A DNA stretch of 64,000 bases from a virus. Its lineage: Duplodnaviria; Caudoviricetes. How positions within the stretch are numbered: position 1 is the first letter of the stretch; the number at the start of each line of letters is the position of its first letter. Shown here in pieces: positions 15,728-47,178 of the stretch. The position numbers and the translations under genes were made by a program. The notes beneath the pieces were generated by a model. That model was given only the letters and a program-made list of their open reading frames with translations, did no database searches and was not told the DNA's origin. The DNA is taken from positions 212 to 64,211 of the IMG/VR virus record IMGVR_UViG_3300031354_000002, one strand, 5' to 3'.

Positions 15728-15851
15728 CACCATCTCCATACCCCCACTGTAGCGCCGGGACCACACTCTCCCGAAGGTCATAACCCACTTGCCATTTGGG
15801 TACCAGCGAAGGCCCGCGTCCGACGGGGCTTTCCGGGGCTTGAGCTATAAA

Positions 15852-15977
15852 TGTGTCTCCTCGCCACATTGTGGTCCCGGAACCACAATTGAGGAATTGT
15901 CGAACCCGGACCCAGCGCCCAAGGCCCGCGTCCGACGGATATACCGAACGTCCGTTCGGGCTGGCACGAGGCTTGCA
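15852..15977 (+). promoter_or_regulatory. sigma54 promoter P1 with paired upstream palindromes and GC hairpin
   Basis: TGGCACG-AGGC-TTGCA at 15962-15977; TGTGGT-N6-ACCACA at 15870-15887; inverted degenerate copy at 15852-15868; CGTCCGACG core at 15929-15937. Confidence 0.8.
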
Positions 15978-16049
15978 TTTTTTAAAGGTGGGTGGCGGGG
16001 TGCCACTCGGGGCGCCGGGCCTGAACCCGGCCAGCAAGGAGGAAACGAC

Positions 16050-16925
16050 ATGACAGCAAACGCATTAGCAACAGAAGCAAGGATGACAGGCAAGGTGGCC
16101 GGGCGCGGAATGAGCGTCGAGTCTGCCCTGAAGGCAATTCCGAAGGTCGAAGAGCGTCCGGTCTACTTCGGGGATGACACCAGCAGGCGCCGGATCGAAA
16201 TCAAGGGCCAGAAGGCTCTGATCAACCCGGAGACCGAGGAAGTCTTCAGTATCGTCACCGACGATTACCAGCTCATCCGACACGAGCAGGTGATCGAAAT
16301 GGCCGAAAGCGTCGTGGACGAAATGACCGAATACGGCAAGCCGGAACGCCGGGTATGGCTCCCGCAGGACGGTGCGAAAATGAGACTGCAGTACACATTC
16401 CCGGAGGCGGCAATGACCGTCGCGGGAGACACCGACGGCGGGCGCGGAATCGCACCAAGCTTTGATGCTTTCAATAGCCTTGATGGATCGATCGCGCTCC
16501 GGGCGATCTTCGGGGCATACCGGATAATATGCAGTAATGGGATGACGGTCGGCACGAAGGAGATCGAATACCGTCGCGAACATCACCAGCCGATGGATGG
16601 CACCCACGACATGAAAGCAATGATCATCGTCGGGATGAAGCGATTCAGTGATCAGGTTGGCATCTGGGAAAAGTGGGTTGACCGGGTGACCACACTAGCC
16701 GAATACGAGAACATCGTCACCGGACTCAAGCTCAACAAGACACAGACCGAGGACCTTCACCGCGAGGTCGAGGTCTCATCCGGGGTCCGGCTTGAGGACC
16801 AGAAACTGCAGGCGATAACCTTGTGGGCTTTCTACAACATCGTTACCCAGTTCATCACGCACCGGATCGAGAATCAGGTAGTCCAGCAGAGGATGATGGG
16901 GCGCGTCAGGAGACTTTTCCACTAA
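16050..16925 (+). CDS. DUF932/DUF945-family protein
   Basis: KALINPETEEVFSIVTDDYQLIRHEQV...NSLDGSIALRAIFGAYRIICSNGM...H; RBS AAGGAGG before the ATG at 16050. Confidence 0.8.
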   Translation: MTANALATEARMTGKVAGRGMSVESALKAIPKVEERPVYFGDDTSRRRIEIKGQKALINPETEEVFSIVTDDYQLIRHEQVIEMAESVVDEMTEYGKPERRVWLPQDGAKMRLQYTFPEAAMTVAGDTDGGRGIAPSFDAFNSLDGSIALRAIFGAYRIICSNGMTVGTKEIEYRREHHQPMDGTHDMKAMIIVGMKRFSDQVGIWEKWVDRVTTLAEYENIVTGLKLNKTQTEDLHREVEVSSGVRLEDQKLQAITLWAFYNIVTQFITHRIENQVVQQRMMGRVRRLFH

Positions 16926-22614: not shown

Positions 22615-23502
22615 CTAAGTCAGATTGAATGGTAAATACTCGCACTGAAACCCGGCTGCCCCCTTATGCCCACCCCCACCATGTTTCTTCGCCACTGACG
22701 AAACATCAATATCATCCCTGTCGGAATATAGGGATACTGTCCATTTTCCCTTACGCCACCCAAAAGTAAGCATGGCATCATATTTTTGGCTGTCCCAAAC
22801 AGAATTAAATAGCTGCGAGTTGGTGAGCATCTTATTGATTGCGATACATTTCAGACCATCCAGCTCTGTTTCGAAGGCGCAGGCAGAACAGTATTTTTCA
22901 TTTTCGGCTAATTGATATTTTAGTATTGTTCCGCCAATTTCGGTAATTCTCTGGACCTCTTCCACATCAAATAAGGAGTTCCAAAAATCCTGATTATCCG
23001 GCCATGTATTGGGCTGCTGTCTCATCCCGTATTGGAACGAAAGAGTTCTTGGGTCGGAATGGTTCCACACGTCATACTCAGCGAGAAGCTTTATAAAAGT
23101 GGGGAGATCACTTTCGGATGAAATATTTTGAAAATCTTCAGTGTAAAAATGCCCCAGGGATTTAAGATATTCCCATGTATATTCCCATGTTAAGGCACAG
23201 GCTCCTATACCATCCCTTTGTAATCCATAGAATTTATTTCCGTAAACTTCAGATTCTTTAATCGCTGATATGTGGTGATCTATCCAGATCAACGTTCCAC
23301 AGGATTGATTTAACCTCAACATTCCTTCAAAAGGTTGAATGGAAAAATCAACCATAAAGATTAATTCATCAGGCCCTATATCGTCCCATGGAAATTCGTC
23401 TCCATAATTGATCCCTATCATATCGCATTCAGGAAATGCCATTTTAATTATTGCTCCAGAACAATGACCGTCCAAGTCCGCTGAGTGATAAAAACATTTC
23501 AT
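22615..23502 (-). CDS. DHH/DHHA1-family phosphoesterase
   Basis: HSADLDG, VDFS, WIDHH, GGGGHKGAAGF motifs; visibly AT-richer than its flanks. Confidence 0.88.
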   Translation of the reverse strand: MKCFYHSADLDGHCSGAIIKMAFPECDMIGINYGDEFPWDDIGPDELIFMVDFSIQPFEGMLRLNQSCGTLIWIDHHISAIKESEVYGNKFYGLQRDGIGACALTWEYTWEYLKSLGHFYTEDFQNISSESDLPTFIKLLAEYDVWNHSDPRTLSFQYGMRQQPNTWPDNQDFWNSLFDVEEVQRITEIGGTILKYQLAENEKYCSACAFETELDGLKCIAINKMLTNSQLFNSVWDSQKYDAMLTFGWRKGKWTVSLYSDRDDIDVSSVAKKHGGGGHKGAAGFQCEYLPFNLT

Positions 23503-24434: not shown

Positions 24435-25352
24435 TTATCCATTTTCCGTCCCATCTTCCTTCTCCTCGGCCACAGCCATCATCAACCGGGCAAAGGCCCT
24501 GCCCAAGTGGTCAAGCTCCCGGTTCCCGGCCCGGTAGGCTGTTATGTGGCCCACGGCGTGATTGAGGTGATCCTCTATCGGAAGTTCCCGCCAGCCATCA
24601 GGTTCATGGTCCTTTAATCCGTCGTGCATGATACCCGCCAGACATAGCATAGCCTTGGGGTCGATCAGATCGAACCGGTATGGACGCAGTGATTGAAGAC
24701 TGTCCCGTTCGTGGCTATCCCACTCTTTGTCCGCACGAAATGTTTCCTTGATATCAGAGTTCCCACAGGACGGGCATGCTATAAACGGATGATTTGCGTG
24801 TTCCTCTACTGGCCGCTCAATCGCCCAGCCACAAGCTCCGCACTCTACCCTGACCATCATTGCTTCCTTAGTCTTATCAGGTTCTTTTGTAATCCAGCGC
24901 TCGGCTTGTAGTCCGTTCAGCCCTTTGGCTTTCCATATACCCACCAGCTTCTTCATTCTTTTCTCTATATACTCAGTTGCCCCTGCTCCACGGAGATCTC
25001 TGCCGACAATACATTCTCTGACGAAGAAGTATTCTCCATCGTGCTTATTGACATTCTTTCCTCCGGGATTATCTGTCCAAAAAATTACCTGATAACAGCT
25101 TAGAGCATCGTTTGTATTAGTTATTATCCCCTTGACAGGAACGGCAAACAGATATCTATTGTATACAGTTACTCCCATGCCGATGTTACTGGGGTCGGCT
25201 ACTAGTTTATCCTCCATTCGTTTCCTCCCTATTGTCATAATTTGGGCAGCACTCCCGCCACTCAGTCCGGGAATGCTGCCTTCACCCAAGGCAAGGCAGG
25301 GGACCGCCCCCCACCAAAATTTCATTATACCACGTCGGGCGCTCCTTGCCAA
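24435..25352 (-). CDS. Multidomain protein: unknown N-terminus, Zn ribbon, and C-terminal dATP/dGTP diphosphohydrolase (DUF5664-like) domain; start may be 25217
   Basis: CGACG...CPSCG; C-terminal RFDLIDPKAMLCLAGIMHDG.KDHEPDGWRELPIEDHLNHAVGH...DHLGRAFARLMM. Confidence 0.7.
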   Translation of the reverse strand: MARSARRGIMKFWWGAVPCLALGEGSIPGLSGGSAAQIMTIGRKRMEDKLVADPSNIGMGVTVYNRYLFAVPVKGIITNTNDALSCYQVIFWTDNPGGKNVNKHDGEYFFVRECIVGRDLRGAGATEYIEKRMKKLVGIWKAKGLNGLQAERWITKEPDKTKEAMMVRVECGACGWAIERPVEEHANHPFIACPSCGNSDIKETFRADKEWDSHERDSLQSLRPYRFDLIDPKAMLCLAGIMHDGLKDHEPDGWRELPIEDHLNHAVGHITAYRAGNRELDHLGRAFARLMMAVAEEKEDGTENG

Positions 25353-25358
25353 TCCCCC

Positions 25359-26915
25359 TTAGAGAATTGCCCTGTCCACTCGCATATCAATCATCTCTTT
25401 GTGCTCTGGCCCTGTCCCGACATAAGCCACTCTCGCCCATCCGCCGTGTTTCTCCAGCGTCTCTACGAAAGCCCTGACTGCCCCAGACATATCGAACCAG
25501 TTGGTCTTCCCGCAATCATCCCAATTCAGGTAGTTCGCGAACTGCATACACAGTAAGTCTGGGCGCGCTACCCGAATAAAATGAGCATATCTCTCCCACG
25601 AGAAGGAGAATACCCGCCTCGGCAGTTTCGTTGTGGTCGTTATCTCACCGAAATTGTCCGGGTCGGGGTGCCCGCAGCCCTTCGCCACGTTCTCCCACTT
25701 CAGCTCGATTGCGTCAGCATATGGCCCGCTGCTTCCAGTCCGGTTATTGACCCGGATCGGGTACGGCCTAAGCACACCATAGATGTGTCCCACCATTTTG
25801 GGCGAGACCCCGGCCTCGGCCATAGCCATGGCTGGATTGATCATCTTGCTTGTACAGTTACCAACAAGAGTGTACCCAAACTGATTTCCCGCAAAGTAGT
25901 TATGATTATCCTCAACCTCTATATTGTATTTTACGCCGTATACTAGGCGAGCCAGCTTTTCAACTCCGGTACATCGCACTGTAGCAAGGCAGTTGGTCCC
26001 CTCTAAACTATATTCGTTTGTGTACAATAGATCGCCTACCATCAGATCTTTTGCCTCAACTTTTCCCCTTTGGGTATAATACTTGTGACCCCCCGTGCAC
26101 TTAGGAGCTGATTTATCCCCAACGGCTAGATCTGTGTGAACTCTATACCAGTCACCCCCGTGTGGAGTTTTATACCAGTTTATCACTTTTTTGGGTTCAA
26201 GCAAACCTGTGGTACTGTTGTAGGACAGGACCGATGCGGGTATTCTATCTCTAACTAGCTCCTCTATTGGAACTGAGTTACCATTTTCCAAAAGTATCCT
26301 AGTTCCTCTAGCAAAGCAATATCTTGGATCGATGCCGTGCTCTAGGTCTAGGTCGAATCCCTGCGTCATCTCGCACAACACGGTCTCTCTGGAATCTAGG
26401 AGATCATTGATGAAGAATGATACTGGCTCTACTGATACCACTCCCATATCGATAAGCTCTTCGCAGTCACGCGCCAGCGTTATAGTTCCATCTCTCTTCA
26501 TCTTCAGAATCCGCGTCGAGCCGATCCCCTGAAGCGTGGACCCTATATCCGACAAACCGGCCCGCTCCTCATCTCGGATCAGTACATCGGTTATTACTGC
26601 GGCTCTCGGGTCTATGGTTATTCTCTCTAGGTCTATCCCGGTGTCTACTATTTCCTTCCTGAGAAGCCCGGCGTTAATTAGCGATGAAGGACCCAAGTAT
26701 ATCGGGGCGTCGCATCCGACTGCGCTGACCGGAAGGTGGTATGTAACTGTTTTCTTTCCGTCCACCACCACAGTATGACCCGCGTTCGGAGATCCCGCCA
26801 TGACAATAGCCTGAATTTCTTTACTGTATTTCTCCGCCAAGAACGCAGCGAATTTTCCCTTTGCCTCTGAGCCTGCCTGAGCACCACAGACTATGTTAAA
26901 TTTGCCTATCCTCAA
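25359..26915 (-). CDS. purZ: PurZ-family (adenylosuccinate-synthetase-like) N6-succino-2-amino-dAMP synthase with an intein
   Basis: GAQAGSEAKGK (Ser at the PurA Asp13 position), PNAGHT, IGSTLQGIG, CEMTQGFDLD, TTTTKLPRRVF, QFANY, VGTGP; 364 aa after intein removal. Confidence 0.82.
   Translation of the reverse strand: MRIGKFNIVCGAQAGSEAKGKFAAFLAEKYSKEIQAIVMAGSPNAGHTVVVDGKKTVTYHLPVSAVGCDAPIYLGPSSLINAGLLRKEIVDTGIDLERITIDPRAAVITDVLIRDEERAGLSDIGSTLQGIGSTRILKMKRDGTITLARDCEELIDMGVVSVEPVSFFINDLLDSRETVLCEMTQGFDLDLEHGIDPRYCFARGTRILLENGNSVPIEELVRDRIPASVLSYNSTTGLLEPKKVINWYKTPHGGDWYRVHTDLAVGDKSAPKCTGGHKYYTQRGKVEAKDLMVGDLLYTNEYSLEGTNCLATVRCTGVEKLARLVYGVKYNIEVEDNHNYFAGNQFGYTLVGNCTSKMINPAMAMAEAGVSPKMVGHIYGVLRPYPIRVNNRTGSSGPYADAIELKWENVAKGCGHPDPDNFGEITTTTKLPRRVFSFSWERYAHFIRVARPDLLCMQFANYLNWDDCGKTNWFDMSGAVRAFVETLEKHGGWARVAYVGTGPEHKEMIDMRVDRAIL
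25857..26318 (-). mobile_element. Mini-intein (154 aa) in PurZ
   Basis: Starts CFARGTRILLENG (block A), ends YNIEVEDNHNYFA...LVGN followed by Cys+1; removal restores DPRY-CTS; too short for an endonuclease. Confidence 0.88.
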
Positions 26916-27078
26916 AATGCTCCTCCTTGTTGTTTGGTTGTCTATGTAATGGGGCTAGTTTCAATACTATTTGTTTTTTGCGTATAGCATGCAGCACAAA
27001 AACCTTACCCTTCAACTCCAATTCTTCCCCTATCTCGAAAGCGTCAGACACAGTGTGCATATCGGCGCTATTTTTCAT
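26896..27078 (-). CDS. Small hypothetical protein
   Basis: Overlapping, packed ORF. Confidence 0.45.
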   Translation of the reverse strand: MKNSADMHTVSDAFEIGEELELKGKVFVLHAIRKKQIVLKLAPLHRQPNNKEEHFEDRQI

Positions 27079-27367
27079 CTTCCTCCTCCCCCAAAACGCT
27101 GAACGGAGTGTCCTTTATGTCAGTAGTCCCTTCGCCAAACTCGGGCCTCCTTTTGCGTTTGGACCCAGTGTCAACCCTCTGATCCACCTCCATATTTTCA
27201 AATTTCTCCCTAAGCTCGGCATTCTTCAAATACAGAAACATGCTTATGTCTGAGGGACAAATACGGAAGTACACGTCCAGCGCTCCGTCCAGCTTTTTGA
27301 ATCTAGCCTTAAGCTCGTCGAAGTGCCCTCTATACATCTCAAGTTTGTCTGCTCCAGTTCTGCTCAT
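27068..27367 (-). CDS. Hypothetical protein
   Basis: Packed ORF with ATGA overlap. Confidence 0.5.
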   Translation of the reverse strand: MSRTGADKLEMYRGHFDELKARFKKLDGALDVYFRICPSDISMFLYLKNAELREKFENMEVDQRVDTGSKRKRRPEFGEGTTDIKDTPFSVLGEEEDEK

Positions 27368-27657
27368 ATGCTACCATCGTCTAGAAAGTTCTCGCCTATG
27401 TCCGGGAACGAATAGGCATACGCCTCTTGCCTAGCCGCTATTATATCTCCTATCAATATCGACGCCCCTCCCCTGTCTAGTTTCTCCAACAGTTCAACAG
27501 GTACTTCGCCCAGTAAAAAGTCAAATTGCTTTGGCGTCATCTCCTTGCTTTCCCAAGGGGAACGTCCCGGCCTATTTTGGTTCTGTATAACCTTCTCTAT
27601 AAATTTTATTTTCATTTCATCTCTCCCACCACGGTCTCTCGTCTCGTTCCAGACCAC
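27364..27657 (-). CDS. Hypothetical protein (start probably MKIKF)
   Basis: MTPKQFDFL motif, packed ORF. Confidence 0.45.
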   Translation of the reverse strand: MVWNETRDRGGRDEMKIKFIEKVIQNQNRPGRSPWESKEMTPKQFDFLLGEVPVELLEKLDRGGASILIGDIIAARQEAYAYSFPDIGENFLDDGSI

Positions 27658-27814
27658 ATCTTACCCTGCGATCAATCTCCTCGTCAACCTCCTCCAGCAA
27701 AGCTTCGTTATCCTCGTTGTCGTCAAAGTTTTCCGATACCCACTGAAGATAACTAGTGGGAACATCCTCGATATCCTCTCCACGGTGCTTCCCAAACGTG
27801 AATGTGTATCCCAT
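27617..27814 (-). CDS. Small protein with FGKH..DVP.SYL.W motif (ExoX C-terminal-like / DUF3820-like)
   Basis: FTFGKHRGEDIEDVPTSYLQWV. Confidence 0.7.
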   Translation of the reverse strand: MGYTFTFGKHRGEDIEDVPTSYLQWVSENFDDNEDNEALLEEVDEEIDRRVRCGLERDERPWWER

Positions 27815-27817
27815 GCA

Positions 27818-30457
27818 TTAACCTCCGTATTTCCATTTTTCTGTCTCCCCCCAATTTAGTCCTATCTTAGCATCTACCTTTAGTGGAACTTTCATAAACG
27901 GGGCTACTCCTTCCATTATCTCCATAAATCTCGGCACCACTTCATCCAGTATCTCGTCCTGAATTTCAAATAGCAGCGAGTCATGTACTTGGATTAGTGG
28001 GTAGCAGACATATCCATCATCTATATACCCTCTATACACCGGGACGAGTCGGCCCATAGCTTCCTTTGTTATCCCGGCGGTCCCCATCTGGAATGGGGCA
28101 TTGGTGGCTTGGCGCTCGGCCTCTGCTACAGCACTCCTGCTAGAAGATCGTATGCCGGGAATATACCTTCTTCTTCCCCACATATCGGTCACATAACCGT
28201 ACCGACGGGCCTCTGCGCGGGTTCGGTTAACGAACCGGGCTACCCCGGAATAGGTCTCAAACCACTTGTTGATCAGGTCTTGGCACAGCCACAGAGGCCA
28301 ATCTTTCTCCTTTGCCCCGCCAACTATCATCTCTCGTTGCAATCCCTTGGCCGAGATGTCGTTTAGCACGCCGAACCCGACCCTTTTCGCCGGGTATCGA
28401 TGTTTCATCTCGTCAAGCTGATTAATCGGCAGTTTGAACATGGCCGAGGCGGTCTGGCTATGGATATCCAGTCCGGACCTGAAGATATGAAGCATCCTTT
28501 CATCCCCGCTGCCGTGAGCGCAGCACCTCATGTCTGCCTGACTGTAATCAATTTCCACCAAGTGGCACCCCGGCGATGCAATATACCCGCGCTTTATCTT
28601 TAATCCCTCTTCGCTTCGGACAGGCTGAGCCATCAAGTTCACTGGTTCCCCGGACGACAATCGTCCTGTATCCGTCCGCGTCACGCGAAGATTGGACCTA
28701 ACTCGGTTGTGCTTGTCCACTACCTTGGGTATAACCTCGGCATAACTGGTTCTCAGCTTGTTATAGGATCGATAATCCCTAACCATCTGCACGATTGGGT
28801 GCTTATCCGCCAGACGCGCCAATACTTTCTCGTCCGTGCTCCAGCCAGTATCCGTCTTCTTATATCTCGGCAAATCCAGTTGGTCGTACAGCAGTTTCTG
28901 CATCTGCAGGGGCGATCCCGGATTCACATCCCATCCCGCCTCTGCGCTGATTCTAGACTGCAGTTCGTCTTCCTTGGACTGCAGATAGGCGCCAAACTCT
29001 ACAAAATGCTGCGGGTTAGTGAGGATTCCATACTTCATCATGTCCGCTACCATGGGCACAGCCCGCATGTCGCGCTCGAAAGTGCCGACCATCTCCTCCG
29101 CTTCTATCCGTCTCTTCATTATAGGGTATATCCTGATAGTAGCGTCAGCATCGGAACAGGCGTAAGTTTTGGCCTCTTCCGGGTCTATATCCCCGAGAAA
29201 TCCTTCCTCCATCACCCCCAGCTCATCCTCAACCATCTTTCTCTCGCGTGGATCGAAATTGAGCCAGCGCTTGCGAGGGTCTATATCTCCTTTCTTGGGC
29301 GAAACCATATCGCGCAGAATGCCACTGGTCTTGCGCCCTATATCCTGCGGCTGGCGCTTCTTTGGCACCCCCTGAACAAACTCCAGAACCGGGTCCGGCT
29401 TGGGCCATTTCCGCTCTACCACCTTATGCAAGTAGTCTATTGCTTTGAAATACGTAGCCGGGGCGACCGCTTCTGCATACGATCCCATCTTCATTCCGCA
29501 GTGCCTGAAAGCTAGGGGTTTCAATCCCTGAGGCTCATTCTGCAGAAGGTACGCCACTATCATCGTGTCGAAGGGGCGCGCCGGATGAATCCCCACAGAC
29601 TCCAGTATCCCCAAGTCTGACAATGTATTGTGTATAATGGACACAATATTGGGGCTAGAAACGAACATGTCCAGCGCCCATATCGCCTCGGTATCCTCCC
29701 TCATTATCATGTTGGAAGTTCCCGGCTCGACAGAGAAAGTTATACACCATAGCTCATTGTTGTTGGTATTCCACTCAACATCCACCGCTATAGTACTCCT
29801 ATTGCCCACTGCGCTCAGCACGTCTCCCGCAGTCCGGCATCGGATGTATCTCTCCTTGCCCGCAAACGGATCTTCTATATGCCGAGATGGGCGCTCCTGC
29901 CGTATTATTCCGAACAGACTCTTAAAATCTGCATATACGTTGAGCATGGTCTTGTTGTCGCGCAATCCTGCAGCCACATGATATAGCGGAACTACTATTC
30001 TTCCATTTTTCTGGAAGGGAATGCCGTGCACAGTCTCCATGTCCACGTCGCCCAGTACCCGCCTCGTGCTGAAACCTCCGATAGTGGCTATTATTTGCGG
30101 GTCAACTCTATCTATCTCATAGTCCAGATAGGCTGAGCAAGCATCAATCTCGTCCTTGCGCGGATTCCTGTTTCCGGGAGGCCTGCATTTAATACTATTC
30201 GTGAGATAGACATTCTCGCGCGGACAAGAATTTATGTTGAGGATGTGATCAAGTTCTGCCCCGCCCGCCGCCGAAGGATGGAACGGGGTCCCGTGTCTAT
30301 CCTCAAACTCGCCGGGGGCCTCGGCTATCATCATTATGGCACATTTCTTAGGGCCTTGCCCCCCAACCACGAGGTTTCTGGTCTCGCTAAGCCTGCATAA
30401 AGTGCAGTTCTTATTTAACGGCCTTCCTACCATCTTCCATCCGCAAAGTCGTTCCAA
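27818..30457 (-). CDS. polA: Family A DNA polymerase with an N-terminal family-4 uracil-DNA-glycosylase-like domain and a 3'-5' exonuclease (SPO1-type architecture)
   Basis: UDG: CTLC, AEAPG, TNSIKCRPP, ACS, LYH. Exo: DVEW, HNTLSD, YACSDAD. Pol: TGRLSS, DYSQADMR, RYPAKRVGFG, NAPFQ, QVHDSLLFE. Confidence 0.92.
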   Translation of the reverse strand: MERLCGWKMVGRPLNKNCTLCRLSETRNLVVGGQGPKKCAIMMIAEAPGEFEDRHGTPFHPSAAGGAELDHILNINSCPRENVYLTNSIKCRPPGNRNPRKDEIDACSAYLDYEIDRVDPQIIATIGGFSTRRVLGDVDMETVHGIPFQKNGRIVVPLYHVAAGLRDNKTMLNVYADFKSLFGIIRQERPSRHIEDPFAGKERYIRCRTAGDVLSAVGNRSTIAVDVEWNTNNNELWCITFSVEPGTSNMIMREDTEAIWALDMFVSSPNIVSIIHNTLSDLGILESVGIHPARPFDTMIVAYLLQNEPQGLKPLAFRHCGMKMGSYAEAVAPATYFKAIDYLHKVVERKWPKPDPVLEFVQGVPKKRQPQDIGRKTSGILRDMVSPKKGDIDPRKRWLNFDPRERKMVEDELGVMEEGFLGDIDPEEAKTYACSDADATIRIYPIMKRRIEAEEMVGTFERDMRAVPMVADMMKYGILTNPQHFVEFGAYLQSKEDELQSRISAEAGWDVNPGSPLQMQKLLYDQLDLPRYKKTDTGWSTDEKVLARLADKHPIVQMVRDYRSYNKLRTSYAEVIPKVVDKHNRVRSNLRVTRTDTGRLSSGEPVNLMAQPVRSEEGLKIKRGYIASPGCHLVEIDYSQADMRCCAHGSGDERMLHIFRSGLDIHSQTASAMFKLPINQLDEMKHRYPAKRVGFGVLNDISAKGLQREMIVGGAKEKDWPLWLCQDLINKWFETYSGVARFVNRTRAEARRYGYVTDMWGRRRYIPGIRSSSRSAVAEAERQATNAPFQMGTAGITKEAMGRLVPVYRGYIDDGYVCYPLIQVHDSLLFEIQDEILDEVVPRFMEIMEGVAPFMKVPLKVDAKIGLNWGETEKWKYGG

Positions 30458-31077
30458 GCCGAGGATGTTGCAGCCCCGAGAAATGAATCCAGCGAGTTAT
30501 TTCCTTCGCCGATCCATTTGTAGTCCTTGATTATATCCCTTGCCAGCAATAAAATTTCTTCCTGATCCTTCAAGTCACTGAGGACTTTCTCTGCTGCTTC
30601 CAGCTTTCGATTTACCATCACTTCCACAGCATTTATCCTGCTGCCAGTGTATTTGACTTTACTGATAGCCTTTTTGATCTTCGATAGGTCTCTGCTGACC
30701 TTTCCAGAATCGTCAATGCATCTCCTCCTTTTCTCGATTATATCGTTCTTGGCCTGCCCGATAATGTCAAACCTGTCTGGATTAGAAATAAACTGACTCA
30801 TCAGGGCATTGAGAGTAGCTAACAAGACATTCATTGCCTCTTGCTCAAGGAAGCTCTCCCTGCTGATAGTGCCATCAACTGGCTCCCCTTTGTCATATCT
30901 CCCCCTCATGCTCGGGTCGCTCAGAACCCGGTATGCCTTCGACACTAGCGCAAATTCATCCTCTGACCCGCCACGGTCGGGATGCGTGTCCATCGCGCGC
31001 TTTCGGTATGCTGCCTTAATAGTCTCCTTGGTAGCTTTCCTGTCTACCCCCAGTGTCTCATATAGGTCCTTGCTCAT
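30427..31077 (-). CDS. J-domain (DnaJ-like) co-chaperone
   Basis: DLYETLGV...IKAAYRKRAMDTHPDRGG...AYRVLSDP..R.RYD with intact HPD; start taken at MSKDL. Confidence 0.88.
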   Translation of the reverse strand: MSKDLYETLGVDRKATKETIKAAYRKRAMDTHPDRGGSEDEFALVSKAYRVLSDPSMRGRYDKGEPVDGTISRESFLEQEAMNVLLATLNALMSQFISNPDRFDIIGQAKNDIIEKRRRCIDDSGKVSRDLSKIKKAISKVKYTGSRINAVEVMVNRKLEAAEKVLSDLKDQEEILLLARDIIKDYKWIGEGNNSLDSFLGAATSSAWNDFADGRW

Positions 31078-31337
31078 GCTAATAACCTCTTCCATAACAT
31101 ATTTTTGGTTCGGGTCGCTACGTGTACCCACGGTACTCCCTTGTTTGTCAAAAATTCCTTCCACTGGTCTAGTATCCACATCCCTTCCCCGCTTGTGCTA
31201 GTAGTATCTACCAGACACATGACGTTCGGGTGCTTTCTGAAATCCTCCACTTTGTACTTATCAACGATAGAATCTTCGTCATATACGTTAAGGAAATCTT
31301 GCCCACTAAACATAGTTATTCCCTCCCGGTCTTCCAC
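31074..31337 (-). CDS. Hypothetical protein
   Basis: Packed ORF. Confidence 0.45.
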   Translation of the reverse strand: MEDREGITMFSGQDFLNVYDEDSIVDKYKVEDFRKHPNVMCLVDTTSTSGEGMWILDQWKEFLTNKGVPWVHVATRTKNMLWKRLLA

Positions 31338-31576
31338 ACTTTATTCCAGACTTCAGCCTGATTGACCAGTCGCCAGAACACGGATTTGGTGTCGTCCCCC
31401 CTCGCCTCTATCAGTACTCCATTTCGGCTCATCGCGCAAAAGATCCGCTTATTCCCATCCCTGACGTAATGGTTGAGACAGACGATATACCACCCATCCA
31501 GTGGGGGAACTTCCCATGGGAACATAACATCTTTCCCAGTGGGGACCCACTTTCCATTTTCGTTCTTGGTAAACAT
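31316..31576 (-). CDS. Hypothetical protein
   Basis: RBS GGAGGA, packed ORF. Confidence 0.55.
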   Translation of the reverse strand: MFTKNENGKWVPTGKDVMFPWEVPPLDGWYIVCLNHYVRDGNKRIFCAMSRNGVLIEARGDDTKSVFWRLVNQAEVWNKVWKTGRE

Positions 31577-31577
31577 G

Positions 31578-32060
31578 TCATCCTCCCTTGTGGTCGATAT
31601 ATAGTTGGTGGCTCCCTCTATATTCCTTCTTTGCTAGGTTATCTGCCACTATCCTCTTCCATACTGGCGGGGTCTGCAGTCCCATTTTCCTTCCGCGTTC
31701 CACCCACCAGCATATCCACCATACCCAATTCGGCAGCATAAGCCAAGATTTCTTGTCGGGCAACCATAATCTCCCCTTTCTAATATTCGATGTGACATGA
31801 GTGTAACACAAAACATAGGCCCTCTCATTTCTCGTTATGGCCAGTGCCAGCCTAGCCCCAGCCATCTCATGCCCCTTCTTGGCCTCATCGTCGCTCAGGT
31901 AATCCCTGCCCCAGATCCCTATGTCGTGCAGCAGAATGCATATCAATTCCCACCATTTGGGCCATGAATGATACTCCCTGCGCCACGCGATCAGAACCGC
32001 TAGGCCATGTATCAGCGGATTGTGATACCCGAATAATACCGATCTCGTTCCTTCTTTCAT
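31578..32060 (-). CDS. HD-superfamily phosphohydrolase-like protein
   Basis: IHG...LLHDIG...GHEMAG...H...PDK metal-ligand spacing; ATGA overlap at 32060. Confidence 0.65.
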   Translation of the reverse strand: MKEGTRSVLFGYHNPLIHGLAVLIAWRREYHSWPKWWELICILLHDIGIWGRDYLSDDEAKKGHEMAGARLALAITRNERAYVLCYTHVTSNIRKGRLWLPDKKSWLMLPNWVWWICWWVERGRKMGLQTPPVWKRIVADNLAKKEYRGSHQLYIDHKGG

Positions 32061-32407
32061 TTTACCCCACCGGGCACTTCCTCCACAATCTGGGTCTTGA
32101 GCCACGCGGCTATAGACTCGGCGTGGCAGCGCAATGGGATGCACCAGCAGAAAAGCCTAACCATCCCGTATTCACTGTATGCCAGCAAAATCTGCTCAAG
32201 GTATTCCTGCACTGCTTTCCTGTTCAGCATAACATCGTTGAAAAATTGTTCGTATTGATCACATACATAATTCCTCTGGGCTTCTCGCAGCATCACATAT
32301 GGATTTTCAAGAGGGGTTCCCCTATCGACCCTGAAATCATAGGGCTTGCTGGGTTTCTCGTTTCTCATGTTGTGTATAGTGATATTCATCGCAACTCCTC
32401 CGTTCAA
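32057..32407 (-). CDS. DUF4326-family protein
   Basis: RVDRGTPLENPY...VCDQY...LFCWC.PLRCHAE.I. Confidence 0.8.
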   Translation of the reverse strand: MNGGVAMNITIHNMRNEKPSKPYDFRVDRGTPLENPYVMLREAQRNYVCDQYEQFFNDVMLNRKAVQEYLEQILLAYSEYGMVRLFCWCIPLRCHAESIAAWLKTQIVEEVPGGVK

Positions 32408-34573: not shown

Positions 34574-35168
34574 TCAATTCCTCCATGTATTGTGCTGCTT
34601 CTCGTTTAATGTTTTCCCAATTCTGGTCTATCTCCATCTGATCGAACGTGAATCGAGCTTCCCTGTATATTGGCCCGCTGCCCCTGTAATCTCCCACCAG
34701 ATATAGGATACTCATTATAGCAGTATCAGTATCCATGACCCTGCAGTACCCCTTCAACTGGGACATCCAATAGAAGTCCTCTGAGGGGTCTCTCCTGCTG
34801 GACCTCCATGTACACTTGTACTCCCGCAGTATGATCTTGCGTGGGTTCGGCTCAGCGACCCAATTGCCATCGTCGTCCTCCCATCCGGGGTCTGGCTCTA
34901 CCCCATCCGGTGAACACATTATACCATCCAAGGACTGCTCCTTCAATCTAACTACGAGGCGATCCGCAAAGACGCGCGACCAGATGTCCTCCCATAGGAA
35001 ACCTACCTCGGACGCGATGTCCATGTCCCACCCTTCGGCTGTCTTGGCAGTGCCCATTTTGATAATAGTTCTGCGTATCATGTTCGTCATGTGGATGCCC
35101 GGAGCGCGAACCACCCCCGAACCTAGGGTAATAAACCTATCCGTCTTGTCCGAAATAAACTTCTCCAT
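34563..35168 (-). CDS. PD-(D/E)xK exonuclease (Cas4/YqaJ-like)
   Basis: GFLWE, CSPDG, EYKCTW, QLKGYC. Confidence 0.75.
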   Translation of the reverse strand: MEKFISDKTDRFITLGSGVVRAPGIHMTNMIRRTIIKMGTAKTAEGWDMDIASEVGFLWEDIWSRVFADRLVVRLKEQSLDGIMCSPDGVEPDPGWEDDDGNWVAEPNPRKIILREYKCTWRSSRRDPSEDFYWMSQLKGYCRVMDTDTAIMSILYLVGDYRGSGPIYREARFTFDQMEIDQNWENIKREAAQYMEELNGK

Positions 35169-35869
35169 TACTCCTCCTTTGTTCCTGCCCTGTCAATCTC
35201 TATATCGTCGAATATTACCGGTATTATGCTTTTGGCTTTCTCCAGTAATGGTATCATAATTTCTCTCATCTGTGGGTGCGCAGCCTGAGAGCAGCGAAGT
35301 TCGAAGATATGTCGCCACTCGCGGAAGTTTGTGGTCATGACAATTTCTGTTTTTGTTGAGTTGGGTAGTACAGACCGTGCTTGTTGGGGAGACCAGCCGC
35401 TTCGGGATAACTCATTGTAGCAACGTTCCGCATTAAGCATAGATCTAAACCAAATCCAGTTTGGTGCCCTCCATGGGTTAATTGGTTCATAGGTTTCTGT
35501 GTATTCTCCTTCACCAATACTAACCCAAGGAGGAATCACGAAAGTACACCCTCCCTTATAATTCACATATCTTGTACTTTCCTGAGAAAATGATGCAAGT
35601 CGATGTCGGACAAGTTCATGTGTCACTCCGCGATCACAGATAAATTTTACTGCTATAGCTGAGTGTTCAATTACTGATTCATGGCCATTTTTCAGGATCA
35701 TTTTAGCAAATTTAATAGCTGTCACATTAGCTCCTGCTCCAGACTTATCTTCAGATTTGTAACAGGTGCGTCCAGCTTTCTCGATGAGTTGTAAAGATTC
35801 TACTCCTTGCCCACCTTCAGCAACTCCCATAATGCTTAAGATTTCAAAACTTGGTTTTACTAATATCAT
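35168..35869 (-). CDS. thyX: FAD-dependent thymidylate synthase
   Basis: GHESVIEH, RGVTHELVRHRLASFSQESTRY, ARSVLPN, NFREWRH..ELR...AHPQMR. Confidence 0.95.
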   Translation of the reverse strand: MILVKPSFEILSIMGVAEGGQGVESLQLIEKAGRTCYKSEDKSGAGANVTAIKFAKMILKNGHESVIEHSAIAVKFICDRGVTHELVRHRLASFSQESTRYVNYKGGCTFVIPPWVSIGEGEYTETYEPINPWRAPNWIWFRSMLNAERCYNELSRSGWSPQQARSVLPNSTKTEIVMTTNFREWRHIFELRCSQAAHPQMREIMIPLLEKAKSIIPVIFDDIEIDRAGTKEE

Positions 35870-39274: not shown

Positions 39275-41656
39275 CTACATTGTTTCCAATTTCGGCGCTG
39301 GCGGGACTGTGTTCCTGCTCACAAACGAATCAGTGAACCACTCCGGCGCATAACTCTTGTACCTGTTTATAAACCAAGTTATATTATCGTCGATTATTAT
39401 GTTCTCGCAGAAATCATCCTTGGATCGGACGCTCCTCCCGCAAGTCTGGATTAGCTGCTGCATGGCTATATACGAATTATACCCTTTGTCGCTCTTGGTC
39501 CTCGCCTTAACCAATTTGCTGGTAGAGTCCGGATATGCAATCTTTCCGATAATTTGTATCCTGCATTCGTCTCCCGGAAAATCATATCCAGTTGTGACTG
39601 ATGGAGATACCAGATACGCTGGGGCCTTGGCCTGCTTGAACAGTTTAACGGCCTTCTCAACTTCCTTGGGTCCGTGATCCATCATGCATTTCATGTTCTT
39701 GCTGTTCATCATTACCATTTCTTGTCGCTTGTACGATACGGTGTGGATAATTCCTTTGCGGTCCTGTCTGGCCCTAAGTATCTGGTCGATGCGCGTAACC
39801 CACTGCCTCAATTCCATGTCGCTGATCTTGTAGTTCATCCGCACCGTAGGGACGTGCACCAGACGCCTCCTCTCTATCGGGAATGAATGCTCGAACTCTA
39901 GCTTGGAGTATTCGTCGCGCGCTACCCCGAGTATTGCTGCGGTCTTCCCGCACATACTGGCGCTAGTCATTATTATGTTGGGGATATCTCTGAACAGCAC
40001 TCCTTCGCAGTACGGCGCGGGCCACACCGGGCACAGTTCTATGCGGTATCTGGTCACGTCACATATCCAGTTCTCCCCCATACTCCGCATCTCTTCGAGG
40101 TTAACCACAGTTCGCTTGAGCTGTGCCAGTCTGCGTCGAATTGAGCGATTGTTGGTTCCCATCCTGATACTGCGCTGTACAGATTCCACCTCGCGCTCGA
40201 CGCTGGGCAGTCTGCTGCGCGCCCACTCCCTCCATTCCGGGATTGTCATCTGGGTCGGGCGCGACGGGTAGTACGGCATCAGAACCTCATCTTCCTTGTC
40301 GAGCGATATGGTCAAAAAATTGCTGACTATATCTGGCGCATTGTGAGCCTCGTCGCACACTAGGGTATCCACATTTCCGAGTCCGTCCCCGTACATATTT
40401 TGGTTCATCCAGTATGAATAATTAGTTACCACTAGAGGGGCGCGTTGGGCGCGGCGCACGGCATTGTAATAATCGCATCCGAAGTTTTTTAGCTTGCATT
40501 CGATTCCGGCGATGCACGGCCCGTGGTCGCAGGTCGTCTCCCCGTCAGCCTCAAGGTTGCAGAAATAGGAATTTCGTCCGCGCACATCCACCATCCCAAT
40601 GGACTTGAAATCCTCCAGCAGTTGCGTCTGTAGCCCCTTGGTACTGGTTAAAATTATTGCTCGGCCACCAAGGAGAATGGAGGAAGCAGTATATTGCAGG
40701 GATTTTCCACTATTGTGTACTACAATCCCGTTAGCCACAAAATTATGGTAGTCTGGGCATTCAATATCGTAGGTTTCCTCCTCCCCGACATACCTAACAT
40801 CCACAACTCGCGAATAATGCGGAACTCCTTGTCCGAAGTTCCTGTATAGGTCATGCTCAGCATTGTGATCCCCGATCGATAAATGAATTAAGTTTGTGGG
40901 ATCATTATTGTAGTGGTCCCCATCTTTATGGTGTACGCAGTATCTAGCCGGATCTATATATCTAAGGTTTTCCCATTCATTTGAGTTCGCTCTTAGAATT
41001 TGGCAGTATTCTTCGATAGATATTCCGTTTATGTATGCCTCATATACCGCTCTATGTACTTCTATGCGTCGCGTCCACCCTCGCACCTCTTTGGAAGTGA
41101 TTGTTCTAGACGCATACGGATGATTCCACAAATTTGTTATATAACTATCGCGGAGTTTGTCTCGCACACCCCCAGACCTTACAGGCTTTATAGTGTCCAC
41201 CATAACTAGATGTTTATTAGTCAATTCTCCGAGTGGAATCCATCCGGTATCAGTCATTACCAAGTGCTCATACGTAGCTTTCAGAGTTGTCCTATCGGCT
41301 AGACAAAGTTCATATACCGGCTTGGCCCCGCTATACAGTATGTCTGTAGCCTCGTGCAACTGCACTCTGGTTCCATCATAGGACCTAACCATGGTTGGGA
41401 TAGTGTCCTTCCATTTAGGTCCTTTGTTTAGTTTATGGTGACACTTATACATTTGTCTGATGGTTTGTCTTTTGCTGCATCCACCACGATTACGCACTAT
41501 TATGGTATCTCCCGACAAACACCCCGTGGGGCATATCTGGACGCGGAAACGTTCGGGCTGTTGCGTGGCGTGAAGTATTGCCTCGCCCTGACCCGAGCGC
41601 CACCCGGCAAATTTCGCTGGAAGTCCTATCGCCTCCGGCGGAAATAATAATGACAT
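39275..41656 (-). CDS. DinG/XPD-like SF2 Fe-S helicase with an intein
   Basis: Q motif GQGEA, Walker A CPTG|SGKS, LTSTKGLQ.QL, Cys cluster, VTNYS, CDEAH, TSAS, IIHTVSY, TGYDFPGD, QTCGRSVRS.DD; 523 aa spliced. Confidence 0.9.
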   Translation of the reverse strand: MSLLFPPEAIGLPAKFAGWRSGQGEAILHATQQPERFRVQICPTGCLSGDTIIVRNRGGCSKRQTIRQMYKCHHKLNKGPKWKDTIPTMVRSYDGTRVQLHEATDILYSGAKPVYELCLADRTTLKATYEHLVMTDTGWIPLGELTNKHLVMVDTIKPVRSGGVRDKLRDSYITNLWNHPYASRTITSKEVRGWTRRIEVHRAVYEAYINGISIEEYCQILRANSNEWENLRYIDPARYCVHHKDGDHYNNDPTNLIHLSIGDHNAEHDLYRNFGQGVPHYSRVVDVRYVGEEETYDIECPDYHNFVANGIVVHNSGKSLQYTASSILLGGRAIILTSTKGLQTQLLEDFKSIGMVDVRGRNSYFCNLEADGETTCDHGPCIAGIECKLKNFGCDYYNAVRRAQRAPLVVTNYSYWMNQNMYGDGLGNVDTLVCDEAHNAPDIVSNFLTISLDKEDEVLMPYYPSRPTQMTIPEWREWARSRLPSVEREVESVQRSIRMGTNNRSIRRRLAQLKRTVVNLEEMRSMGENWICDVTRYRIELCPVWPAPYCEGVLFRDIPNIIMTSASMCGKTAAILGVARDEYSKLEFEHSFPIERRRLVHVPTVRMNYKISDMELRQWVTRIDQILRARQDRKGIIHTVSYKRQEMVMMNSKNMKCMMDHGPKEVEKAVKLFKQAKAPAYLVSPSVTTGYDFPGDECRIQIIGKIAYPDSTSKLVKARTKSDKGYNSYIAMQQLIQTCGRSVRSKDDFCENIIIDDNITWFINRYKSYAPEWFTDSFVSRNTVPPAPKLETM
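40712..41521 (-). mobile_element. Intein (270 aa) with an HNH homing endonuclease, inserted in the helicase Walker A motif
   Basis: CLSGDT start, ATYEH block B, VHRAVY...VHHKDGDHYNNDPTNL HNH, TYDIEC..YHNFVANGIVVHN|S end. Confidence 0.92.
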
Positions 41657-45959: not shown

Positions 45960-46415
45960 CTAGGACCGGGCAACTCCTTTGGATTTTTCGACGCCGCGAA
46001 TGATTGCTAGGCCTAGCATGGCGCTGACCAGCTCCAATAGCCCATTCGCCTCGACCGGGAAGGGTGCTAATGCTTGGGCAGCCCATGAGATTTTAACCCA
46101 CAGAATTGCCGCGAGCAGATATTGCGGAATGAAATAGCAGCCAAGGGATACACCGCATACCCACCCAATAAAGGGGCGCCACCCGGACACAAACACACTC
46201 GGATGCTTGGCCTCCTGTATGTTGATCTGGACTTGGCCCTCGCGCGCCATATTCTCCAGTTCCATCATTTTTTCCTGTAGTTCAGCCTTCTTTTCTGGGG
46301 ACATATCCCCTGTTATGGCAGTGCGTATATCCTTGGCCAGACTGCCAACGCCCTCAAGCACTCCTTTAACTGTGCCTGCGCCAGTTTCGGCGAACAATTT
46401 TCCGAGAAATCCCAT
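45960..46415 (-). CDS. Holin (3TM / GTA-holin-like family)
   Basis: EAKHPSVFVSGWRPFIGWVCG...LLELVSAMLGLAIIRGVEK. Confidence 0.85.
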   Translation of the reverse strand: MGFLGKLFAETGAGTVKGVLEGVGSLAKDIRTAITGDMSPEKKAELQEKMMELENMAREGQVQINIQEAKHPSVFVSGWRPFIGWVCGVSLGCYFIPQYLLAAILWVKISWAAQALAPFPVEANGLLELVSAMLGLAIIRGVEKSKGVARS

Positions 46416-46462: not shown

Positions 46463-46888
46463 TTACGCAGAGAACGGATCCGAGAACAGTGCTATGTTGG
46501 ACCTCGACCGAAATGGCCGCACTTTCACGAATGCATTTTGCCGCATAGCATCTTCTACCGTCAGCGTCGAGGAACCCCCGCCGGAGGCCCCGATCGACAG
46601 ATCATCCGATATGCACATTTCCACATGAATGACCCGGCTATCGGGTCCTTTGTTCCAGAACACAAGACATCCTAACTTGGGCGTGTCTGTCTCGGGAAAC
46701 ATCTTGGATAGCTGGTCCGCTGTCCAGTCTCCGCCCCTCGGCAGTATTCCTACACTTTTCAGTATCTCAATTGTTAGACCTGAACAGTCGAAACCCTCCG
46801 GGTCGTCCCCTCCCCATCTATATGGGGTGCCCAGATATGACATGGCAATTTGTTGCGCAATGTAGCGCTTAAACGATACAGAACTCAT
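46463..46888 (-). CDS. NlpC/P60 peptidoglycan peptidase (endolysin)
   Basis: YLGTPYRWGG...GFDCSGL...PKLGCLVFW...HVEM; start taken at MSSVS. Confidence 0.9.
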   Translation of the reverse strand: MSSVSFKRYIAQQIAMSYLGTPYRWGGDDPEGFDCSGLTIEILKSVGILPRGGDWTADQLSKMFPETDTPKLGCLVFWNKGPDSRVIHVEMCISDDLSIGASGGGSSTLTVEDAMRQNAFVKVRPFRSRSNIALFSDPFSA

Positions 46889-47178
46889 GTCGATCCTCCT
46901 TGGCTGCCGCCATTTTTTGCTACTATTCCATTTAATGTTTGTTGTATTAGCTGGGTAGTTGTGTCCAGACTGTGCAGACATTTGGTCTGCTCTTCCAGCT
47001 TGGCGTCAAGCTTCTCGAACCTGACCTTGCCTTCTCTTAATTCATCTACCACCACGCTGTGGGATACGTCGTACACTTCCCTGTCCAGCTTGCACTCCAC
47101 CTTGTTGTTCAGCCACTTAAGTAATCCTCCAAATACTACCACGATCACCCCCGCTACTATGCTTTCGATAAAGTTCAT
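46885..47178 (-). CDS. Membrane protein with coiled coil (holin/antiholin-like)
   Basis: N-terminal TM helix, upstream of the lysin. Confidence 0.55.
   Translation of the reverse strand: MNFIESIVAGVIVVVFGGLLKWLNNKVECKLDREVYDVSHSVVVDELREGKVRFEKLDAKLEEQTKCLHSLDTTTQLIQQTLNGIVAKNGGSQGGST

Follow-up and report, generated by a model that had tools for sequence, protein, structure and literature searches.

A PurZ-like synthetase with a mini-intein and its gene module in an uncultured tailed phage: a probable route to 2-aminoadenine DNA

Among the phages that make 2-aminoadenine (Z), the classical PurZ phages S-2L, phiVC8 and SH-Ab 15497 carry purZ among the replication genes, with a gene of the deoxynucleoside triphosphate (dNTP) pyrophosphohydrolase type directly downstream, and have DatZ, a YfbR-like HD dATP triphosphohydrolase, and MazZ or DUF550 as partners, whereas the cluster of phage Wayne consists of PurZ0, the stand-alone DUF5664 protein gp51, DmtZ-DutZ and the Wayne type of the DNA polymerase DpoZ. 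PurZ of S-2L also consumes dATP, and in phiVC8 the host PurB and host kinases complete dZTP (PMC8342488). On restriction-resistant (dZ-enriched) aquatic phage contigs, PF00709 was found associated with PF18909, PolA and uracil-DNA glycosylase (UDG) domains (bioRxiv 10.1101/2025.10.22.683976). Here we analyse a 64,000-nucleotide stretch of phage DNA (the window), which spans bases 212-64211 of the 64,211-bp IMG/VR record IMGVR_UViG_3300031354_000002; the record is 100% complete by CheckV, so that essentially the whole phage genome is in view. An earlier note on this DNA had proposed a Z pathway with a non-canonical gene set around a PurA-like enzyme. Our analysis, which rests on protein families, diagnostic residues, trees, gene order and the genes that are present or missing, indicates that this uncultured tailed phage probably replaces adenine with Z by means of a nucleotide-supply and replication module. 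Z-DNA in this phage is likely, if unproven.

The PurZ-like enzyme and its relatives

The synthetase gene is an open reading frame (ORF) of 518 amino acids at 25359-26915 on the minus strand, which matches PF00709 (3.9e-26). In PHROGs its best match is PurZ, namely phrog_1211, '2-aminooxy adenylosuccinate synthetase' (1.3e-46), and in the PDB it is closest to PurZ of phiVC8 (6fm1, 1.3e-26) and of S-2L (7odx, 4.9e-26), with Pyrococcus PurA (7e-20) and PurZ0 of Gordonia phage Archimedes (7VF6, 4e-13) further down. The ORF is composed of three parts:

26319-26915, minus strand: PurZ-like N-extein, residues 1-199 (PF00709, phrog_1211), with GSEAKG and SPNAGHT; aligns to PurZ of phiVC8 and S-2L
25857-26318, minus strand: 154-aa mini-intein, residues 200-353 (TIGR01445, TIGR01443; PF14890, PF07591)
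25359-25856, minus strand: PurZ-like C-extein, the second stretch aligned to phiVC8 PurZ, with the TTTTKLPRR loop and F305-A-N307-Y308

The mini-intein is inserted at RY/CTS; it starts with Cys1 and ends with Gly-Asn, after which Cys+1 follows. Its removal leaves a product of exactly 364 amino acids, the length given in the earlier note, and 26 intein-less relatives read DPRYCTSKMIN straight across the junction. Inteins occupy the same PurZ site in three relatives, one of them a mini-intein (P0002) and two with LAGLIDADG (P0003 and P0004). Because relatives carry LAGLIDADG inteins at this very site, the window mini-intein seems to descend from a homing intein whose endonuclease was lost. A literature search found no report of an intein in PurZ.

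Alignment with E. coli PurA reproduced the three motifs that the earlier note had singled out, each at the position given there: GSEAKG, with Ser at the catalytic Asp13, replaces GDEGKG, TTTTKLPRR replaces GATTGRRRR, and MQFAN replaces LTKLD. Ser occupies the Asp13 site in all 16 sampled members of the subfamily, whereas Asp is conserved to 99% in the PurA group (PMC12884076). K-L-D-V of PurA is replaced by F-A-N-Y, and Arg303 together with the K331/D333 guanine motif of PurA is lost as well. In phiVC8 numbering, S14, T262, P233, W252, F295 and Y298 are all kept (S14 corresponds to S16 and T262 to T272 of the window enzyme). In the phiVC8 enzyme, S14, F12 and T262 contact dGMP's 2-amino group, and F295 and Y298 stack on and stabilise the adenine ring of ATP (bioRxiv 10.1101/2025.10.22.683976). 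The counterparts of this pair, F305 and Y308, are present as a donor pocket of the ATP type, with Asn307 at the site of Asp333 of PurA and PurZ0, and the TKLPRR loop is identical in the window enzyme and in PurZ of S-2L.

The gene might instead encode an ordinary adenylosuccinate synthetase, an auxiliary metabolic gene boosting AMP, or a PurA-like enzyme with another substrate, in a phage with canonical DNA. JGI labels the relatives 'adenylosuccinate synthase', and the score with the archaeal PurA model NF003295 is no lower than that with the PurZ model; the window enzyme, however, reaches the cut-off of neither PurA model, the catalytic Asp13 and the guanine motif with Arg303 are gone, and the gene lies in a replication module, adjoining a gene of a dNTP diphosphohydrolase family. 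We therefore regard this explanation as very unlikely. As a separate observation, a metagenomic protein of 349 amino acids (P0160) passes NF003295 (376.7 bits vs a cut-off of 368 bits) and yet carries GSEGKG, with Ser at the Asp13 site; automatic PurA annotation may hide PurZ-like enzymes of this kind.

The window enzyme is a member of a large subfamily of environmental sequences, of which over 270 clusters (90% identity) share 50-73% identity with the window protein, many of them on phage contigs of 40-67 kb, and a profile search of 1.8 billion representatives returned 1117 clusters (50% identity) at E <= 1e-30, with Ser rather than Asp at the Asp13 site in nearly all of the best 150 matches. 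An alignment and tree with PurA, PurZ0 and PurZ, as the earlier note had suggested, were computed, the careful IQ-TREE analysis comprising 61 sequences, four of them PurZ0 (Wayne, Ghobes, TurboVicky and Hiyaa). The window subfamily falls in a clade (100/99) with PurZ of S-2L, phiVC8, SH-Ab 15497 and PMBT28 and with Bacillus phage vB_BpsS-140, and an inner clade (96/96) unites it with the canonical four PurZ; PurZ0, with its four sequences, stands apart from the PurZ clade in one of its own (100/100).

This placement bears on the possibility of a GTP-using enzyme of PurZ0-like or transitional type. The P-loop GSEAKG is identical to that of PurZ0 from Wayne and Ghobes, whereas PurZ of S-2L, phiVC8 and SH-Ab has GSTGKG with F-x-N/Q, so that the motifs given in the earlier note for the two types hold for these references. 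The layout, with a stand-alone C-terminal DUF5664 gene right after the synthetase, is that of Wayne, and in a quick tree with two PurZ0 sequences a union with PurZ0 was compatible with the approximately unbiased (AU) test. At the donor site, however, PurZ0 of Wayne and Ghobes keep the guanine-specifying Asp of PurA and have Gln at the Tyr site, whereas the window enzyme has Asn307, and its F305 and Y308 fit the adenine-stacking pair of PurZ. In the careful tree, forcing the subfamily to PurZ0 cost 57.9 log-likelihood (lnL) units (AU p=0.043). We treat the quick-tree outcome as an artefact, since PurZ0 was represented there by only two sequences on long branches and the tree search was short, and the rejection of a PurZ0 affinity as real but not overwhelming. 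The combination of Glu15 and Asn297 (GSE with FxN) is common, occurring in 25 of 138 PurZ-like sequences including that of vB_BpsS-140, and the Glu after Ser is best read as a state shared with GDEGKG of PurA and not as the mark of an intermediate. The idea of the earlier note that the enzyme may be intermediate between PurZ0 and PurZ was abandoned on the strength of the tree, the AU test and this frequency, and a GTP-using enzyme appears highly improbable.

On the mapped residues and the tree position, the preferred reading is that the window enzyme would work like the ATP- or dATP-using PurZ, in a subfamily that the curated model fails to cover and that lies beyond the current curated definitions. 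Reportedly, Tong et al. 2023 are in conflict with a statement that the preference of PurZ0 and PurZ is for 'ATP and GTP, respectively'. This wording is found in PMC12884076; it conflicts with the use of ATP by PurZ (PMC8342488), and likewise with the introduction of bioRxiv 10.1101/2025.10.22.683976. On these three grounds we treat the wording as a slip.

Like PurZ of S-2L, phiVC8 and SH-Ab 15497, then, the window enzyme has Ser for Asp13, the residues T262/P233/W252/F295/Y298 and an Asn or Gln at the guanine-specificity site, it stands on the same branch of the tree, and its gene is part of the replication module, with a gene of the dNTP pyrophosphohydrolase type following directly. Unlike them, it has GSE and not GST, Ala and not Phe or Tyr at the F12 site, an intein and only about 30% identity. 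With Wayne it shares the GSEAKG P-loop, and it differs from Wayne in standing outside the PurZ0 clade and in its F-A-N-Y pocket, which in the Wayne type is M/F-L/A-D-Q.

The DUF5664 gene, missing helper genes and HD160

The dATP/dGTP-diphosphohydrolase-like domain that the earlier note had seen directly after the synthetase was recognised by a family model:

24435-25217, minus strand: 260-aa protein whose N-terminal part is an orphan; it also has a CxxC...CxxC zinc ribbon and, at the C-terminus, a DUF5664/PF18909 domain (24456-24683)

PF18909 (dGTP_diPhyd_N, formerly DUF5664) scored 40 bits against a cut-off of 27 bits (3.9e-10) at residues 224-299 of a 305-aa frame, and a six-frame search also recovered it in this gene. 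Translation probably begins with ATG 25217, downstream of the ribosome-binding site GGGAGG, which gives a protein of 260 and not 305 amino acids. The conserved part is confined to the C-terminal ~80 residues: besides the window's own, four homologues of the protein were found, all matching the C-terminal domain, and the structure model of the 260-aa protein, computed with a view to the N-terminal part, was poor (predicted local distance difference test, pLDDT, 41), and the ESM Atlas gave no match.

In at least 20 of 40 related loci purZ is directly followed by DUF5664. The presence or absence of helper genes was determined by six-frame family searches over 22 related phage records, this genome included; DUF5664 is present in 13 of them, and in 10 of the 14 complete ones. 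With a C-terminal DUF5664, no DUF550 and a position right after the synthetase, the window protein is laid out like gp51 of Wayne and unlike the DUF5664-DUF550 fusion of SH-Ab 15497. In control searches PF18909 scored 110.8 bits on Wayne gp51 and 85.9 bits on SH-Ab gp40; the identity of the window domain is 23% to Wayne and 14% to SH-Ab 15497. The stand-alone Wayne protein turns dATP, dGTP and dUTP into monophosphates (dNMP), and this dNTP-to-dNMP activity has been shown only for the DUF5664 proteins of Wayne and SH-Ab 15497 (PMC12884076). Judged by its domain and layout, the window protein is a candidate dATP/dGTP diphosphohydrolase of this type (dNTP to dNMP).

The other helper genes are largely missing. 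DatZ (PF12917/PF13023) was found in none of the 22 clade records, with the control search finding it in 3 of 3 canonical Z phages, and DUF550 (PF04447) likewise in none, with the control search finding it in SH-Ab and S-2L. MazG (PF03819) is absent from this genome and occurs in three clade records, two of which lack DUF5664; dUTPase, also absent from this genome, is present among the clade records in only two distant relatives; and NDT/DmtZ did not exceed the cut-off in this genome. The closest relative has a weak PF05014 (NDT-like) gene at the place corresponding to HD160, which is described below. With DatZ and DUF550 missing from all 22 records, MazG and dUTPase rare and no NDT above the cut-off, the gene set that the earlier note had called non-canonical is typical of the clade and no peculiarity of this phage. 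Thus the window differs from the S-2L, phiVC8 and SH-Ab systems in having no DatZ, MazZ or DUF550 partner genes; like Wayne it has no DatZ and a C-terminal-only DUF5664 protein, and unlike Wayne it has neither DutZ nor DmtZ.

The lack of DatZ in every clade record, in the face of a working control, would fit another explanation, in which dZ nucleotides are made and the substitution is partial or conditional, no dedicated dATPase exists, and the HD protein and the polymerase are unrelated to Z. We consider this explanation unlikely: Z phages of the Wayne type are also without DatZ, and their DUF5664 and DutZ remove dATP (PMC12884076), while PurZ of S-2L itself burns dATP (PMC8342488).

The HD protein that the earlier note had reported upstream of the synthetase gene shows the pattern of the HD fold:

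31578-32060, minus strand: HD160, a divergent HD-superfamily protein of 160 amino acids, with invariant H13, H18, H45-D46, H64 and D102, an AlphaFold (AF2) model and fold matches

The most likely start of HD160 is the ATG at 32060, in an ATGA overlap with the upstream gene, which gives 160 amino acids. The six residues listed, which make up the metal-ligand pattern H...HD...H...D, are invariant in 10 aligned sequences (HD160 and nine homologues). The AF2 model is all-helical (pLDDT 84.5, predicted template modelling score, pTM, 0.81), and HD or phosphodiesterase (PDE) domains make up almost the whole of the 50 best VIA matches; the scores are modest (Foldseek E >= 0.12). The VIA Z scores reach 6.4 for PgpH and 5-6 for hydrolases of the BH1327/YqeK/SP1746 type. 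No Pfam, PHROG or NCBIfam model matches the protein, PF12917, PF13023 and PF01966 being silent. A homology to DatZ was considered and rejected, in line with the remark in the earlier note that the protein does not look like canonical DatZ: BLASTP gave E 6.7, hhalign a probability of 0.3%, and the Z score of YfbR was only 3.0-3.1. On its invariant residues and modelled fold, HD160 is a very divergent HD-superfamily protein of an undescribed family and a candidate nucleotide phosphohydrolase. Like DatZ, it is a small, all-helical HD protein, and in two relatives its gene stands next to purZ and the pyrophosphohydrolase gene; unlike DatZ, it is structurally nearer to HD proteins of the YqeK/BH1327/SP1746 and PgpH types (Z 5-6.4) than to YfbR.

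The HD160 family was found in 7 of the 22 clade records, always alongside DUF5664. The two relatives, L033 and L039, have the order purZ-DUF5664-HD160-polA, which recalls the purZ-mazZ-datZ order of S-2L. The assumption that HD160 is exclusive to PurZ phages had to be rejected, as a 31%-identical homologue is present in the complete, PF00709-less Manatee Spring phage MW202608.1; closer homologues on contigs P0122 and P0124 are in replication modules with no purZ within 8 kb. These occurrences favour partial substitution with an HD protein unrelated to Z, whereas the gene order of L033 and L039, together with the recurrent loss of a polymerase Tyr described below, suggests that the whole module is adapted. 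The link of HD160 to Z is mixed, and we would sooner doubt than affirm that it has a DatZ-like role.

The UDG-fused polymerase and the genome setting

The PolA that the earlier note had placed upstream of the synthetase gene was matched by domain models over three consecutive parts:

27818-30457, minus strand: fusion of a family 4 UDG, a 3'-5' exonuclease and a family A DNA polymerase (PF03167, 1.4e-22; PF01612, 1e-13; PF00476, 7.6e-95)

The exonuclease motifs are intact. The protein is 20% identical to DpoZ of phiVC8, SH-Ab and Wayne and 28% to E. coli Pol I, and its nearest isolate relatives are the UDG-PolAs of Bacillus and environmental phages. Descent from DpoZ was consequently rejected, the identity being 20% to the phiVC8-like as well as to the Wayne-like cluster; this low identity is a further point in favour of partial substitution with an unrelated polymerase. 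Motif B of the window polymerase reads RYPAKRVGFGVLND, with Asn at the position of E. coli Tyr766 (B4). The B4 residue was compared in 11 PurZ-linked UDG-PolAs (the window and L014, L024, L027, L030, L033, L035, L039, L040, L045 and L049), of which eight carry Asn, two Phe and one Tyr, and in three UDG-PolAs of PurZ-less phages (ctfzr933, CP-51 and Lebethron), where it is Tyr in all. Both DpoZ clusters uniquely share Phe at B4, and the question was raised whether further PolA subfamilies are shifted towards Z (PMC10201439). The loss of the B4 Tyr in the presence of PurZ is, as far as these alignments suggest, a correlation worth testing and no demonstrated adaptation. Like DpoZ, the window polymerase belongs to family A, has an intact 3'-5' exonuclease, resides in a genome with purZ and has lost the B4 Tyr; unlike DpoZ, it has Asn and not Phe at B4 and about 20% identity to either type, including that of Wayne. 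The N-terminal fusion to a family 4 UDG is shared with the UDG-PolAs of the SPO1, CP-51 and N4 types; the described UDG-PolA phages modify thymine, not adenine (PMC10201439). The window PolA alone carries Asp at the steric-gate Glu710 (DYSQADMR).

The genes above belong to a replication and nucleotide-metabolism module on the minus strand, from ~24.4 to 41.7 kb. In the order of transcription, a helicase with an intein comes first, then AAA_24, a nuclease (ERCC4), an endonuclease (HNH), DUF4326 and the HD protein; next are DnaJ and UDG-PolA, and after three small orphan ORFs come the PurA-like gene and, finally, the DUF5664 gene. Between HD160 and PolA lies a further gene:

30427-31179, minus strand: DnaJ-domain protein (PF00226, 1.5e-19)

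The DnaJ-domain protein is regarded as context; the order DnaJ to UDG/PolA recurs in the closest relative and on contig P0122. The DEAD_2/Helicase_C_2 helicase at 39275-41656 (minus strand) bears an intein, too (PF14890 at residues 95-315, with a weak HNH_3 match), so that two genes of the replication module, this one and purZ, are interrupted by inteins. The DUF4326 protein (32057-32407, minus strand) is encoded directly upstream of HD160, and an HD160 homologue in the same surroundings, DUF4326...DnaJ-UDG, is seen again on an NCBI contig from a metagenome-assembled genome (MAG; locus L057, 3016-3339), where the UDG is a separate gene of 186 amino acids. ThyX is encoded within the module on the same strand (35168-35869, minus; PF02511, 1.6e-49); across 40 related loci no ThyX was found within 10 kb of purZ.

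Outside the module, a 295-aa protein (22615-23502, minus strand) has sub-threshold DHH (6.7e-6) and DHHA1 (9.5e-5) matches of NrnA- or RecJ-like character and might act as a nuclease or phosphoesterase that supplies dNMP pools; the 40 related loci show no homologue of it less than 10 kb away from purZ. A DUF932 protein is encoded at 15789-16925 (plus strand) in an early region of opposite orientation, and a lysis pair, a holin of the gene transfer agent (GTA) type with three transmembrane (TM) segments and an NlpC/P60 endolysin, at 45960-46415 and 46463-46981 (both minus strand). No tRNAs were found in the genome. As to the host, a scan of genome contigs gave a single pointer, and a weak one: an 11-kb contig of one relative, assigned to a Dehalococcoidia MAG from a cold seep.

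The proposed pathway and its significance

From these results a pathway may be proposed. The mini-intein would splice out to give the 364-aa PurZ-type succino-amino-deoxyadenylate synthetase, which would join dGMP and aspartate to dSMP with ATP or dATP, not GTP, as the phosphate donor, and host PurB and host kinases would finish dZTP. The stand-alone DUF5664 protein would yield dGMP from dGTP and lower dATP by dNTP-to-dNMP hydrolysis, taking the place of the pair DatZ plus MazZ/DUF550 of the classical PurZ phages. UDG-fused PolA would then replicate the genome, and HD160 may clear remaining adenine nucleotides.

A number of points tell against this reading. What the enzymes do, and that the DNA contains Z, we infer from sequence comparison for the subfamily as a whole. 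Among the mapped residues there is one departure, Ala in place of F12 of phiVC8, in the window enzyme and in 13 of the 16 sampled subfamily members. The enzyme does not pass the curated NCBIfam PurZ model NF038379, with 157 bits (split by the intein) against a cut-off of 300 bits; intein-less relatives score 159-184 bits, and phiVC8, S-2L and Wayne 397, 350 and 367 bits. Evidently, the model was built without the window subfamily. The archaeal PurA model scores the subfamily about as high as the PurZ model, the identity to characterised PurZ is only ~30%, and the AU rejection of the PurZ0 grouping is marginal, given that the quick tree with two PurZ0 sequences did not reject it. In a phage without DatZ the substitution could be partial, and the B4 residue has been deemed unlikely to discriminate A from Z (PMC10201439). 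Among phage isolates, the freshwater cyanopodophages PP, A-4L, Pf-WMP3 and LPP-2 have the closest matches to the DUF5664 domain of the window (24435-24740), with 32-40% identity. These are not known to be Z phages, and we know of no report of Z-DNA in PP, A-4L or Pf-WMP3. DUF5664-like proteins also occur in Arthrobacter phages with canonical genomes (PMC12884076), and with these two occurrences the DUF5664 domain alone is not diagnostic.

A bolder version of the proposal would see here a third, independently assembled Z-DNA system, made of the PurZ subfamily and the stand-alone DUF5664 protein only, in which HD160 was recruited to a DatZ-like role in part of the clade, UDG-PolA became adapted to Z convergently with the two DpoZ types (loss of Tyr766, with Asn or Phe at B4), and the intein serves as a post-translational switch on Z synthesis. 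We offer this version tentatively and think it rather doubtful.

PurZ, DUF5664 and their association are already known. New are the unrecognised PurZ subfamily, a helper set without DatZ, DUF550 and DutZ, the orphan HD family, the intein in PurZ and the B4-substituted UDG-PolA. If the proposed replacement of adenine by Z holds true, much of the environmental PurZ diversity would be unrecognised, as the curated models miss the subfamily and the source annotation is adenylosuccinate synthase, and the intein would be one in a bona fide PurZ, for which the literature search gave no prior report. The exclusion of dATP would be possible without DatZ, MazZ/DUF550 or DutZ, which points to a smaller Z-cluster, PurZ and DUF5664, for use in synthetic biology, and HD160 would be a candidate for a new nucleotide hydrolase of the HD type. 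The recurrent loss of the motif-B Tyr in a PolA lineage linked to PurZ, the third of its kind, would, finally, allow the question of further Z-specific PolA subfamilies posed in PMC10201439 to be tested directly.

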